DNA of 64,000 nucleotides from a phage. The notes under the pieces were generated by a model. It searched no databases and was not told the origin of the DNA. It worked only from the letters and a program-made list of their open reading frames with translations. The position numbers were made by a program, and so were the translations under genes. The DNA is taken from sequence record OZ556245.1; one strand, written 5' to 3'. Below, in pieces: positions 1,306-59,587 of the stretch. Position 1 is the first letter of the stretch; each line of letters opens with the position of its first letter.

Positions 1306-2144
1306 TAGAATGCTCCTTGGAAAATATTATCACCGCTAGTAGGTCTATTATACAAATACTCTATGCCACCAGGTTTAATATAGTTCCATGTCTGAAATGG
1401 ATGTGTCTGATATGGATGATATAGATGATTATAAGGATTAAATCCAGGAGTTCTCCAGGTAGTGTTCCAAGGAAAAGAATCGTTTTTAACCATCTTCTCA
1501 ATTAAATCTTTTATAGCTTTTTCACTATCAAAACTTTCTTTATTTTCCTTCGGCGAAAAAAGCTTATTTTCTACATCATTCCATGTATAAACTCGCTGAG
1601 CAGTTTTTGGAATATTGTCACGCTCTCCTCGAGCCATCCAATAAACAGGAACATTTAATATTTCACTCGCATGATCGCAGTGATGAGCGAGATCGTCAAT
1701 ATAACAAATTACGTTATATTTCTCTTTTGCCTTTTTAAACAACTCTTCTTTTGAAGAATCATGACCACACATCATTACTTCTGAGAAGGCACCAGGAAAA
1801 AGAGCATTCAAATTAAATTGACGATTCAACAGAGCGTCAATAGAATCACCCAATGCTGTGACAGCTACAAAATTATAATCTTCTTTTAATTTGTTAATTA
1901 CACACAGTGCATCTTTATATGGAGACAAGTAACGAATAAAATCTGATCGATTATATTTTTCAATTAGCTTGACACCGAGTTCTTCATCACAATTAAAGAG
2001 TTTACCTGGAGAAATAAATTTCTCATCTTGGATCATTTTTAAAATATGTTCTAACGGAAGATTATATTTCTGAGCAAAATAAGGAAGACCTGATTGCCAG
2101 CTTAAACATACTCCATCAATATCAGTTAAAATAGTAGGCTTCAT
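1305..2144 (-). CDS. HAD-superfamily-like hydrolase (30.2 position)
   Basis: 279-aa ORF; N-terminal DIDGV (HAD motif I-like) and later YIDD motif; synteny. Confidence 0.55.
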   Translation of the reverse strand: MKPTILTDIDGVCLSWQSGLPYFAQKYNLPLEHILKMIQDEKFISPGKLFNCDEELGVKLIEKYNRSDFIRYLSPYKDALCVINKLKEDYNFVAVTALGDSIDALLNRQFNLNALFPGAFSEVMMCGHDSSKEELFKKAKEKYNVICYIDDLAHHCDHASEILNVPVYWMARGERDNIPKTAQRVYTWNDVENKLFSPKENKESFDSEKAIKDLIEKMVKNDSFPWNTTWRTPGFNPYNHLYHPYQTHPFQTWNYIKPGGIEYLYNRPTSGDNIFQGAF

Positions 2145-16137: not shown

Positions 16138-16366
16138 ATTGTTTTTCCGTTAAAACAGTAATATCATAATAACAGTCAGAAGAAGTTTTAACTGTGGAAA
16201 TTTTATTATCAAAATACTCACGAGTCATTTTATGAGTATAATATTTTTTGCCATAAATGATAATAGGCTGATTTGGTCCTGGAACTTCTAACTCGCTTGG
16301 ATTAGGAAGTGTAAAAAGAACTACACCAGAAGTATCCTTAAATCGTAAAATCATATATCCTCTCAA
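16091..16366 (-). CDS. hypothetical protein (nrdA.2 position)
   Basis: 91-aa ORF. Confidence 0.5.
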
Positions 16367-16377
16367 TTAAATTAAAA

Positions 16378-17237
16378 TTACACCGCCATCTTTCCTTTAA
16401 TTGGCGGGTGAGATACATAGTTGTTAAGAACAAAATTATGCGGCTTTGCGAATTGACTCAACCAAAATACCTGCGATTCTGTGTCCCATTCATCAAATTC
16501 ATCTGGAAATTTTAATTGTAATTCGCATAAATCCATAGGTTCACGACGCAAAATTTCTTTACATTGTTCTACGTGATTCATATAGATATGAGTATTACCA
16601 CCAGAAAATATCAAATCTCCTGGAATAAGATTACACATCTTAGCTACAATATGAACTAACGTAGCATATGATGCAATATTAAATGGAAGACCGAGGAAAA
16701 CATCTACCGAACGTTGATACCACTGCAAATCCAAATAGCCATTACGCACATTAAATTGATAGAACATATGACAAGGTGGTAATGCCATTTGCTTGAGTTC
16801 AGCTGGATTCCATGCTGAAACAATTTGACGTCTATCATTTGGCAGTTTTTTAATACGATCAACAACTTCTATAATTTGGTCTACACCACCAAAATCACGC
16901 CACTGTTTTCCATAAATTGGACCAAGTTCACCACTATGGTATCCTAAATCTTTTGCTTGATTTTCGTAATTTTCATCCCAGACTGTTTTGCCTTGAATTA
17001 ATGAATCATGTTGAATTAATCGCAAATCATTGACATTTGTGCTTCCCGATAAAAACCATATTAGCTCAGCAATGCAAGCTTTCCAGGCAAGCTTCTTAGT
17101 CGTTACTGCAGGAAAACCTTTAGTTAAATCCCAGCGTAATTTAGTACCGAACAAAGCAATTGTTCCTGTGCCTGTTCGGTCATCGGTTTCATAACCGTTT
17201 TCCAGGATATCTTTAATTAAAAATTGGTATTGTTTCA

Positions 17238-17238
<1 letters not shown>
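16378..17238 (-). CDS. td: thymidylate synthase, uninterrupted
   Basis: 286 aa from MKQYQ; ThyA motifs (PPCH, sequence around the catalytic Cys); track ORF starts 4 codons upstream at a TTG. Confidence 0.93.
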
Positions 17239-18263
<1,025 letters not shown>

Positions 18264-32603: not shown

Positions 32604-32635
32604 TTTTTGAATAAATACCCTTAAAAGGAGGGTCT

Positions 32636-33292
32636 ATGACAGCACCTAGAATATCATTTTCGCCCTCTGATATTCTGTTTGGTGTTCTAGATCGCTTGTT
32701 CAAAGATAATGCTACCGGGGAAGTTCTTGCTTCCAGGGTAGCTGTCGTAATTCTTTTGTTTATAATGGCGATTGTTTGGTATAGGGGAGATAGTTTCTTT
32801 GAGTACTATAAGCAATCAAAGTATGAAACATACAGTGAAATTATTGAAAAGGAAAGAAATGCACGCTTTGAATCTGTCGCCCTGGAACAACTCCAGATAG
32901 TTCATATATCATCTGAGGCAGACTTTAGTGCGGTGTATTCTTTCCGCCCTAAAAACTTAAACTATTTTGTTGATATTATAGCATACGAAGGAAAACTACC
33001 TTCAACAATAAGTGAAAAATCACTTGGAGGATATCCTGTTGATAAAACTATGGATGAATATGCAGTTCATTTAAATGGACGTCATTATTATTCAAACTCA
33101 AAATTTGCTTTTTTACCAACTAAAAAGCCTACTCCCGAAATAAATTACATGTACAGTTGTCCATATTTTAATTTGGATAATATCTATGCTGGAACAATAA
33201 CCATGTACTGGTATAGAAATGATCATATAAGTAATGACCGCCTTGAATCAATATGTGCTCAGGCGGCCAGAATATTAGGAAGGGCTAAATAA
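32636..33292 (+). CDS. t: holin T
   Basis: 218-aa ORF, single TM helix (VAVVILLFIMAIVWY) and large periplasmic domain; strong AAGGAGGG Shine-Dalgarno. Confidence 0.93.
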   Translation: MTAPRISFSPSDILFGVLDRLFKDNATGEVLASRVAVVILLFIMAIVWYRGDSFFEYYKQSKYETYSEIIEKERNARFESVALEQLQIVHISSEADFSAVYSFRPKNLNYFVDIIAYEGKLPSTISEKSLGGYPVDKTMDEYAVHLNGRHYYSNSKFAFLPTKKPTPEINYMYSCPYFNLDNIYAGTITMYWYRNDHISNDRLESICAQAARILGRAK

Positions 33293-57575: not shown

Positions 57576-57772
57576 TTTGAATGCTCTATAATTAATTTTA
57601 AGGCTTCTTCATGCACCTTACCTAATTGTATATGTCCAGTTTTAATTGTGTAAGCTTTGTGGAGCTGATTAGATAAGAGCTCACATACGAGCTCTTTGTC
57701 ATAATTTTTAAATAGCTGGTCAATACGTTTCTTGTGGGCTTTCTTAAGCTGGCGTTTATTTAAACGAGCCAT
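57572..57772 (-). CDS. hypothetical basic protein
   Basis: 66-aa ORF. Confidence 0.5.
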   Translation of the reverse strand: MARLNKRQLKKAHKKRIDQLFKNYDKELVCELLSNQLHKAYTIKTGHIQLGKVHEEALKLIIEHSK

Positions 57773-58290
57773 TAATAACCTCGGTCTTGACGAGCGAAGT
57801 TTTCAGCATTTTTCAGATAATAAAGTTTAAAGATTTCTTCAGCCGTAAGACCGAGACCTTGGAACATGTTCAGAACGAAATGAAGAATATCAATCATTTC
57901 GAATTTAATTTCCAACTGGTCTTGTGGAGACAAATCAGTAATCAGAGTTTCACGTCGTTCACCATGCTGAGCTTTCCAAGGCTTCCATACAGCAGATGCA
58001 TCTTTTTCACCATTGCTCATACCACCAAGAGAAGTCAATAGTTCGCGGAATTCATCATCAATATAATCTTTCTGATTACGCAGCCAATCAACAACTTCAC
58101 CCGCAGTAGCCAAATCATCAGGATGACGGTTATATTCAGGTTTATCTTTAGCTAAACGAACCTGCAGAGATTTCTGCATATCAAGCATAACCTGCAGCGG
58201 GTCTTTTTCATCACCGAGAATATCCCAGTATTCATTTTGAGCTTTATCAGCGCCTTCAATCAGTTGTGAACATTCATTAAAGTATGCCAT
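57772..58290 (-). CDS. 56: gp56 dCTPase/dUTPase (MazG-like)
   Basis: ~172 aa from MAYFNECSQLIEGADKAQNEYWDILGDEKDPLQVM; track ORF has a spurious 31-codon upstream extension. Confidence 0.9.
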   Translation of the reverse strand: MAYFNECSQLIEGADKAQNEYWDILGDEKDPLQVMLDMQKSLQVRLAKDKPEYNRHPDDLATAGEVVDWLRNQKDYIDDEFRELLTSLGGMSNGEKDASAVWKPWKAQHGERRETLITDLSPQDQLEIKFEMIDILHFVLNMFQGLGLTAEEIFKLYYLKNAENFARQDRGY

Positions 58291-58361
58291 TATTTTTCCT
58301 TTCAATTCATGGGTTAGTAGATTAATTATACAATAAATATATAAAGCAATAAGGAGGATAT

Positions 58362-58457
58362 ATGGTACAAAAATTAATGGCACTTGTCGATGCCATAAAA
58401 GGTAATAAAAAACGTATAGCTTTTACTATTTCTGTTATGATAGGAATTTTACTCTGA
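58362..58457 (+). CDS. small hydrophobic ORF (31 codons to an in-frame TGA; same frame continues 34 more codons to 58562)
   Basis: AAGGAGG at 58351-58357 then ATG 58362; MVQKLMALVDAIKGNKKRIAFTISVMIGILL-TGA-NFVLSPIAIAHGVNIPVITLDTFVDLAFALVGLI. Confidence 0.35.
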   Translation: MVQKLMALVDAIKGNKKRIAFTISVMIGILL

Positions 58458-58558
58458 AATTTTGTTTTATCACCAATTGCTATTGCTCATGGTGTTAATA
58501 TTCCGGTAATTACTCTTGATACATTCGTAGATTTAGCATTTGCTTTGGTTGGGTTAAT

Positions 58559-59587
58559 TTAAATCTTAGCATATTTAGATAGCCGCATTTTAGCCATCAA
58601 CCCTTGGGCAATATTATTTTTCATATATTCCATAATTTGTTTAGGGGTTGCACCTTCCTTTCTAATCATATCATTAACATCTTTTGATTTCCAGGGAGAT
58701 TTGTCCCAAAACATAACCCTTTCTCCTGCATCAACTAATTTAGTCATTCGTTTAATAGTGTCAGGATGACGAGGTTCATTATCTAAAACCCATACACGTC
58801 TATCTTTAAATGGAACAATTTCTAGGTCTAATTGACCACCCGTAATAGCTATACCATTTTCAATAAAAAGTGAATCTATAGGTCCTTCTAGAACATATAC
58901 ATCACCATCTTTGACTCGTTCGACTCCATAGATTTTTGTTGCCTCAGGATAAGCTTTGATGGTGATATATTTTTGAGGAGCATCTTTCTTTAATGCACGT
59001 CCTTGAAAAGACTCGGCTTTTCCGTTAGCATTATAAATTGGAATAACAAGACGAGGCTCAGGTATTTCCTTTTTATATGTTCCTGGCGCTATGCTATTAA
59101 CTAATTTAGGCCATTCGGTTGTAAACCAAAGATATTTCCATTTATTCTTTGGAATACAACGAGCTTTTACATATTTTATAATTGGATGGTCTTCCGCCAG
59201 TTTATCTAATCTAATGCATGACGGAAGAGATTTAATTATTTTCTTCTCAGGTTGTTTAGGAAGTTCTTTAGGTTTTTCTACTGGACGACTTTTACCTTTT
59301 TCTTTTCTTATTTCAAAGATATACTCACGATATAAATCAGGTTCAAACTCCTTTAAATATATTCCGATTGGTGCATGATAGTTGCAGTTATAACAATGAA
59401 TATTTCCTTCATTATTATCACCATAATACCATCCACGGGCTTTATTTTGGTCGGTTTTTGAATCTCCACAAACAGGGCATCTAAACCGTAATTTAAAAGT
59501 TGAACTATTATTTACTTGTGTGAATTTAGGTAAATGAGCTAATGCACGGTATGCAAACTCATTATCAATCCAAGGTATTGATGACAT
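58559..59587 (-). CDS. 61: gp61 DNA primase
   Basis: 342-aa ORF with zinc-ribbon (CPVCGDSK...CYNC) and TOPRIM region. Confidence 0.93.
   Translation of the reverse strand: MSSIPWIDNEFAYRALAHLPKFTQVNNSSTFKLRFRCPVCGDSKTDQNKARGWYYGDNNEGNIHCYNCNYHAPIGIYLKEFEPDLYREYIFEIRKEKGKSRPVEKPKELPKQPEKKIIKSLPSCIRLDKLAEDHPIIKYVKARCIPKNKWKYLWFTTEWPKLVNSIAPGTYKKEIPEPRLVIPIYNANGKAESFQGRALKKDAPQKYITIKAYPEATKIYGVERVKDGDVYVLEGPIDSLFIENGIAITGGQLDLEIVPFKDRRVWVLDNEPRHPDTIKRMTKLVDAGERVMFWDKSPWKSKDVNDMIRKEGATPKQIMEYMKNNIAQGLMAKMRLSKYAKI

Follow-up and report, generated by a model that had tools for sequence, protein, structure and literature searches.

A private opal codon in a conserved gene for a small putative membrane protein between genes 56 and 61 of a Tequatrovirus

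The junction between genes 56 and 61 of a Tequatrovirus carries a small plus-strand open reading frame (ORF) whose counterparts in related phages encode an intact protein of 66 residues, and in which codon 32, a near-invariant tryptophan elsewhere in the family, reads TGA. We consider it likely that this is a conserved gene for an inner-membrane protein, that the change at Trp32 is private to this genome and leaves a null or strongly hypomorphic allele, and that the absence of dam from the same junction is unrelated to it. The features on which this account rests are collected in Table 1, where positions are those of the window, that is, the whole 64-kb stretch of phage DNA that was analysed.

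Table 1. Features of the 56-61 region, numbered along the window
Feature	Position	Strand	Comment
Gene 56 (dCTPase/dUTPase)	57772..58290	-	519-nt extent as annotated in close relatives; left neighbour of the ORF
MotA-type middle-promoter-like site of gene 56 (GCTT-N13-TATAAT, within ATTGCTTTA...TATAAT)	58325..58347	-	Consensus match; overlaps the plus-strand octamer
Octamer AATAAATA (ATAAATA part at 58333-58339)	58332..58339	+	7/8 match to the T4 late-promoter consensus TATAAATA; putative late promoter of the ORF
Shine-Dalgarno site TAAGGAGG	58350..58357	+	4 nt before ATG 58362; single copy in the window
Small putative membrane-protein gene, RB32ORF030w / RB69ORF029w family, PHROG 2024	58362..58562	+	66 aa expected; codon 32 is a stop
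Terminator-like hairpin (ATGGCA...TGCCAT, then TAATTTTTG)	58377..58396	-	On the gene 61 strand; inside ORF codons 6-12
Opal codon, TGG (Trp32, conserved WNF motif) to TGA, next base A	58455..58457	+	Private to the window genome
Gene 61 (DNA primase)	58559..59587	-	Convergent with the ORF; stop codons overlap

A conserved plus-strand gene in a minus-strand region

The window is from a Tequatrovirus. Its 56-61 stretch is 99.0% identical to those of phages PBM-1 and EPIMAM01 and finds matches in 741 phage records. For gene 56 we adopted the 519-nt extent, the longer GTG-started ORF being a mechanical call. Between this gene and gene 61 lie 71 nt and the small ORF, which runs for 31 codons to the TGA and then for a further 34 sense codons to a TAA (58560-58562) that overlaps the gene 61 stop on the opposite strand. 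The facing ends of both flanking genes, the coordinates of the Shine-Dalgarno site, ATG, TGA and TAA, and the translation all agree with an earlier description made from the letters of the DNA alone (hereafter the sequence-only reading).

That description had proposed a plus-strand gene that has signals of its own and encodes a hydrophobic protein, and comparison with databases bears it out. Once tryptophan is put back at codon 32, the translation finds PHROG 2024 at E = 2.7e-30, with residues 2-66 covering all 65 positions of the profile, and the window product is 85-97% identical to 66-aa members of the family. The parts of the ORF before and after the TGA each have their counterparts in intact 66-aa genes of relatives, where a 201-nt CDS is annotated at this place under the names 'RB32ORF030w', 'putative membrane protein' or 'hypothetical protein'. 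In T4 itself the 66 codons are intact as well, at 17738..17938 (+) in the gap between dam and gene 61, and are absent from the reference annotation. Searches by tblastn with the most divergent members recovered the gene in about 700 phage records. It occurs in Tequatrovirus, Mosigvirus (RB69ORF029w) and Gaprivervirus (TH15), so the frame is conserved across three genera, and the prospect that related phages would lack an ORF in this frame can be set aside. The family is already catalogued, though uncharacterised, and we found no mention of ORF030w or description of the ORF in the literature.

The family is also compact. A collection of 5.8 billion proteins holds 32 clusters of it, nearly all with proteins of 66 aa, and a profile search of 1.84 billion representatives returned only a handful of family representatives and linked no larger family. 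For this search, and for the structure prediction described below, the query was the 97% identical protein P0001, standing in for the Trp-restored window protein.

Position and orientation are as stable as the sequence. At every locus that we inspected, and in nearly all of the listed matches, the ORF converges on the primase gene 61, and metagenomic homologues at only 52% and 70% identity keep the order 56(-) / ORF(+) / 61(-). In SHFML-26 the ORF is the one plus-strand CDS among 58 CDS over 33.8 kb, and the claim that it is the only plus-strand gene embedded in the minus-strand early region holds in that genome. The window copy shares position, orientation, length, Shine-Dalgarno site and upstream octamer with the RB32ORF030w / RB69ORF029w family of Tevenvirinae. 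It differs from the intact catalogued members, which have 65-66 aa, in its TGA and in two further private substitutions. Lacking the uninterrupted frame of 65-66 codons with WNF, it is a disrupted allele of the family.

Judged from its sequence, the ORF is a genuine gene under purifying selection. Variable sites are distributed over the first, second and third codon positions as 10/4/16 within Tequatrovirus and 41/19/55 overall, and this ranking of third over first over second extends along all 66 codons, with a dN/dS of 0.2-0.25. Between lineages, synonymous sites are saturated, while length, start, Shine-Dalgarno site and stop are preserved. The motifs AIKGNKK, WNF, AHG and VD persist between lineages, including at 45-52% amino-acid identity.

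The opal codon and its likely consequence

Relatives have TGG where the window has TGA. The sequence-only reading had asked which of the two codons related T-even genomes carry, and the alignment gives TGG in the relatives and TGA in none. Trp32 is near-invariant in the full family alignment and invariant in its intact members, and it is kept in Mosigvirus- and Gaprivervirus-type proteins. Across the stop, the window reads ...ATTTTACTC-TGA-AATTTTGTT... (CTC-TGA-AAT). We searched for this allele by megablast with a 30-mer, so that no 28-mer seed could miss the mutated base, using the TGG version of the same haplotype as the control. The control 30-mer was found in 62 phage records and the TGA 30-mer in 0. 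IMG/VR, JGI metagenomes and GTDB genomes, scanned with degenerate exact patterns, yielded no TGA copy; IMG/VR contains only 5 homologous loci, and the allele counts rest on the 30-mer BLAST with its positive control. From the count of 0 TGA against 62 TGG, and from the empty result in the other collections, we therefore take the stop to be a private G-to-A change, a single transition that would have converted TGG at codon 32 to TGA. Among the options put forward in the sequence-only reading, a recently inactivated gene fits best, with TGG in the relatives and a private TGA.

The 201 nt of the ORF contain two more substitutions that are private to the window, one replacing alanine 25 by valine (A25V, at 58435) and one synonymous (at 58505). 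Counted together with the stop, private substitutions number 3 in the 201 nt of the ORF, against 2 in 1,615 nt of flanking sequence (Fisher p = 0.011). As a mark of pseudogene drift this excess is unconvincing. We count it as a weak sign of relaxed constraint, because in all relatives the ORF changes at about 3 times the rate of its flanks.

Could the true codon be TGG, and the stop a base-calling or consensus artefact at 58457? A sequencing or assembly error is the strongest of the competing explanations, and we consider it unlikely. It would account for a TGA that is unique among all comparators and that strikes a near-invariant codon in a gene under purifying selection. The change is nevertheless a clean substitution outside a homopolymer, an uncommon type of error in consensus assemblies, and the two other private substitutions in the same 201 nt mark the copy as genuinely divergent. 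Naturally defective alleles also exist, as in T6, where the start codon has changed from ATG to ATT.

If the TGA is real, termination there would yield a 31-residue fragment with about 13 hydrophobic residues and without the conserved C-terminal half. Such a fragment would be too short to span the membrane. Because the fragment could not span the membrane and the conserved half would be lost, the allele is most likely null or strongly hypomorphic. Internal restart downstream of the TGA was considered and rejected, there being no in-frame ATG, GTG or TTG with a Shine-Dalgarno site. Several family members in assemblies are frameshifted or truncated (P0026, P0027, P0031 and P0036); together with the ATT start of T6, these broken alleles fit a dispensable accessory gene.

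Some full-length protein may still be made. An A on the 3' side of UGA favours UGA suppression in the older literature, and the A1 protein of Q-beta is a classical case of leaky opal termination. In E. coli K-12, UGA is read through at ~2-4% by Trp-tRNA-Trp competing with RF2 (PMC10570021), and the window TGA likewise has A as its next base and would be open to the same near-cognate tRNA. Should a few percent of ribosomes read the UGA as tryptophan, they would rebuild the exact wild-type protein. Residual synthesis of wild-type protein through incidental, low-level readthrough by tRNA-Trp is thus plausible, given the rate in E. coli K-12.

A stronger version of this idea holds that the TGA is tolerated or even selected, giving a reduced dose of a two-helix protein and possibly a 31-aa peptide with a role of its own. 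We regard such functional readthrough as very unlikely. Its appeal lies in a near-cognate suppressor tRNA that restores the ancestral residue, with the baseline noted above, in the favourable next base, and in 34 downstream codons that are all still sense and conserved. A very recent nonsense mutation predicts an intact downstream frame equally well, however, and the stop occurs in 0 of the 62 same-haplotype records and in none of the other lineages or collections. The flanks equal those of the TGG relatives, and no dedicated stimulatory element is evident. Programmed readthrough was rejected on the same grounds, the stop being unconserved, the flanks unchanged and no RNA element detected. Known programmed cases have a conserved stop and a distinct functional extension, whereas the stop in the window is peculiar to this genome and falls within a conserved gene. 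The sequence-only reading had entertained a dedicated opal-readthrough design, which does not survive the finding that the stop is conserved in no relative. Selenocysteine insertion was likewise discarded, since the UGA is not conserved and 58100-58800 contains no Rfam match.

Expression signals and the predicted protein

The ORF carries its own translation signal, AAGGAG(G) lying 4-8 nt before the ATG in six of six lineages, and translation would start from this strong Shine-Dalgarno site. Further upstream, the NATAAATA octamer ends 16-22 nt before the ATG in five of the six lineages, with flanks that are not conserved. The five comprise Tequatrovirus with dam, Tequatrovirus without dam, Mosigvirus, Gaprivervirus and the metagenomic lineage L013; the octamer is missing from the sixth lineage, L016. 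The late-promoter-like octamer that had been read ahead of the Shine-Dalgarno site is present in the window, as AATAAATA. In T4, late genes depend on gp55 and gp33 and have a TATAAATA-type element at -10. The ORF octamer matches this element at 7 of 8 positions, and in no lineage does it have the T that opens the consensus.

The window has 12 copies of ATAAATA where shuffles give 36 +/- 6, a 3-fold depletion, and several of the copies elsewhere sit shortly before the late genes 34, 36 and soc. The variant AATAAATA also precedes the holin gene t, at 32611. We infer that the ORF is probably transcribed late in infection in the gp55-dependent manner, because the position of the octamer is conserved, ATAAATA is depleted and other copies of it precede late genes. 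Late transcription from the NATAAATA element would run antisense to the early/middle transcript that extends from gene 61 to gene 56.

Signals on the opposite strand share the same DNA. In the window, the octamer lies inside the spacer of the minus-strand MotA-type middle-promoter-like site of gene 56. A homologous middle promoter is annotated in SA20RB, and comparable GCTT...TAnnnT sites occur in four other lineages. Placement within this spacer could partly explain why the octamer is present in this lineage. The minus-strand hairpin is annotated as a rho-independent terminator in SA20RB, and its stem is kept in Tequatroviruses; the L013 lineage has a different hairpin plus a U-run at the same place. 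The terminator-like hairpin overlaps the first third of the ORF, where it adds a non-coding constraint.

That the conservation stems altogether from non-coding elements (a gene 61 terminator, a gene 56 promoter, an antisense late RNA or origin-related sequence), making the TGA inconsequential, is barely credible: the 5' part of the ORF and the DNA upstream of it do share ground with the hairpin and the MotA-type site, the annotated oriA of T4 lies close by within gene 56, and reference T4 leaves the ORF unannotated, but the codon-position pattern and a dN/dS of ~0.2 span the whole 66 codons, the 65-66 aa length, start, Shine-Dalgarno site and stop are kept despite synonymous saturation, amino-acid motifs are conserved at 45-52% identity, and no Rfam family matches.

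For the protein-coding gene that we favour, AlphaFold2 (25-sequence alignment, pLDDT 78) predicts helices at residues 2-14, 16-42 and 52-63. The hydropathy profile has one maximum over residues 19-42 and another at the C-terminus. A basic cluster, K13-R18 (KGNKKR), stands ahead of the long helix and suggests that the N-terminus would be cytoplasmic. The C-terminal helix is short, with D53 and D57 on one face. The intact product would thus comprise a short N-terminal helix, a cytoplasmic basic patch, one long transmembrane helix at about residues 16-42 that bears WNF, and a short, acidic, amphipathic helix at the C-terminus. Peptides of the 66-aa product include RIAFTISTMVGILLWNFILSPVAIAHGVNIPVVTLDTFVDLAFALVGLI and, at the N-terminus, MVQKLMALVNAIK.

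Homology gives little purchase on function, with no match in Pfam, NCBIfam or PADLOC. A fold search of BFVD returned only the family itself plus a weak, 29%-identical Karamvirus protein. Two labels attached to family members were considered and rejected, neither having support from homology. For 'Head morphogenesis protein' (T6, BW-1), the notes of the T6 record show that T6 took its label by similarity from the record of another phage, and 'Holin' (on the OE5505 member, in UniProt) appears to be an automated name. The ORF product does resemble phage holins in being small, hydrophobic and probably late, and AATAAATA precedes both t and the ORF. Holins, however, have a charged, hydrophilic C-terminal domain, whereas the ORF product ends in the hydrophobic, uncharged ...ALVGLI and carries its charge on the N-terminal side. 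It matches no holin family in Pfam, NCBIfam or PHROGs, and the phage has a holin of its own, T. For the ORF product we infer no more than a role at the membrane late in infection.

The dam cassette and the significance of the locus

In the T4 reference record the order is gene 56 (16270..16785), dam (16846..17625), a 309-bp unannotated gap and gene 61 (17935..). The placing of dam in the 56-61 interval of T4 by the sequence-only reading was thus sound. So was its statement that no dam-sized gene lies at the junction or elsewhere in the window. A tblastn search with the T4 Dam protein (259 aa, DPPY motif) brought up no homologue in the 64-kb window, the best E being 1.5, and a motif scan of the window found no [DNS]PP[YFW] motif in a Dam-sized frame.

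The significance implied for this absence does not hold up. The full 272-bp dam-less junction occurs in 335 phage records, T6 among them, and represents about two thirds of sequenced Tequatroviruses. DNA of dam is found in 184 phage records, all but one of which have it at a single place, and it adjoins the 56/61 locus wherever this was inspected. Nor does the ORF stand 'instead' of dam, as had been suggested: T4 has the order 56 / dam / ORF / 61, with an intact copy of the ORF beside dam. A third type of junction reads dam / 186-aa gene / ORF / 61 (L010). The boundary between gene 56 and the ORF is a variable insertion site, and dam is an optional cassette that occupies it in the genomes that have the gene. 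The T4 cassette occupies the same genomic site as the window junction, which is without a dam homologue, like T6 and most sequenced Tequatroviruses. Because the dam-less junction is so common (335 records against 184 with dam), the missing dam is unremarkable. It is a routine polymorphism, unrelated to the mutation in the ORF.

For the phage from which the window comes, the locus would pair a common dam-minus genotype with a naturally arisen allele, loss-of-function or hypomorphic, in a non-essential accessory gene. The remaining interest lies in the gene family, which, on the signals and comparisons above, is conserved, probably late-expressed, counter-oriented and membrane-targeted.

A bolder reading is that the ORF is an overlooked late gene of at least three Tevenvirinae genera, acting late in infection as a membrane protein, an antisense late transcript or both, and that the window carries a leaky opal knock-down of it. 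We hold this as a doubtful but not negligible prospect. If it were true, the role might be in lysis timing or exclusion at the membrane, or in the shut-off of early replication-gene mRNA. It would belong to a lone counter-oriented gene in an early-gene block of more than 30 kb, one in which readthrough by tRNA-Trp restores the wild-type sequence.

More broadly, about 700 T4-like genomes contain a 66-codon gene that has a ribosome-binding site of its own and a conserved late-promoter-like element, and that is missing from the T4 annotation. Its natural defective alleles, the opal codon described here and the ATT start of T6, may serve as ready-made material for probing the role of the gene.

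The gene 56–61 junction

In gp56, the window shares 99-100% identity with one group of relatives but only 71-74% with T4 and T6, whereas its gp61 shows ~98% identity to all relatives compared. This split in gp56 identity by group, set against the uniform gp61, marks the junction as mosaic, with a recombination boundary at or near the small ORF. T4 segF is absent from this region of the window, which has small genes of the soc.1/soc.2 type instead. In a third junction type (L010, a relative's locus), an additional 186-aa gene has dam on one side and the small ORF on the other. In the mechanical listing of ORFs, gene 56 runs on to an upstream GTG; homology and the relatives' annotation instead put its true start at an ATG.

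Coordinates of the features discussed (ATAAATA: four example sites of the 12 in the window)
Feature	Sequence	Position	Strand	Detail
Gene 56	window	57772-58290	-	ATG 58290; 172 aa
Gene 56, rejected start	window	57772-58383	-	GTG 58383; 203 aa
Gene 61	window	58559-59587	-	
MotA-box-like site	window	58325-58347	-	ATTGCTTTA-N-TATAAT
Hairpin and U-run	window	58377-58396	-	gene 61 strand
Holin gene t octamer region	window	32611-32636	+	gene t, 218 aa
ATAAATA	window	23048	+	
ATAAATA	window	28115	+	
ATAAATA	window	32611	+	
ATAAATA	window	57380	-	
T4 small ORF	NC_000866	17738..17938	+	L006 (T4 locus) 2739-2939
T6 start codon	NC_054907	L005 (T6 locus) 1572-1574		ATT
Third junction type	IMGVR_UViG_2974787500_000001	L010 1-1500		

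Intact and defective copies of the small ORF

The T4 copy is intact at 66 codons, has an SD site and GATAAATA upstream, and occupies the 309-bp gap from dam to gene 61; it is unannotated in both NC_000866 and KJ477684. In T6, ATT replaces the ATG start codon, and the annotated gene begins at Met6, without a properly spaced SD site. T6 is a classical laboratory phage, and its ATT-start copy may add a second hypomorphic allele of natural origin. Public assemblies also contain several family members that are frameshifted or truncated (P0026, P0027, P0031 and P0036, all protein-database members), one of them in the record of the 175-kb phage ERS-1. These defects reflect either errors of sequencing or additional alleles that have lost function naturally.

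Control signals and late-promoter motifs

The terminator-like hairpin inside small-ORF codons 6-12, together with a different hairpin and U-run at the equivalent position in the divergent lineage of L013 (a relative's locus), suggests that the 5' part of the small ORF, lying between the gene 61 unit and the gene 56 promoter, is constrained both as coding sequence and as a terminator. A middle-promoter-like site for gene 56, recognized by sequence match to the MotA box, overlaps the plus-strand AATAAATA octamer, and the two apparently form a compact bidirectional control region. Upstream of holin gene t, the octamer is likewise the variant AATAAATA, not TATAAATA, and its spacing to the SD site resembles that seen at the small ORF. 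Across the whole window ATAAATA is ~3-fold under-represented (12 observed, 36 expected from shuffles), and several copies directly precede late genes (34, 36, t and soc). This scarcity and late-gene placement fit with stray late-promoter motifs being selected against.
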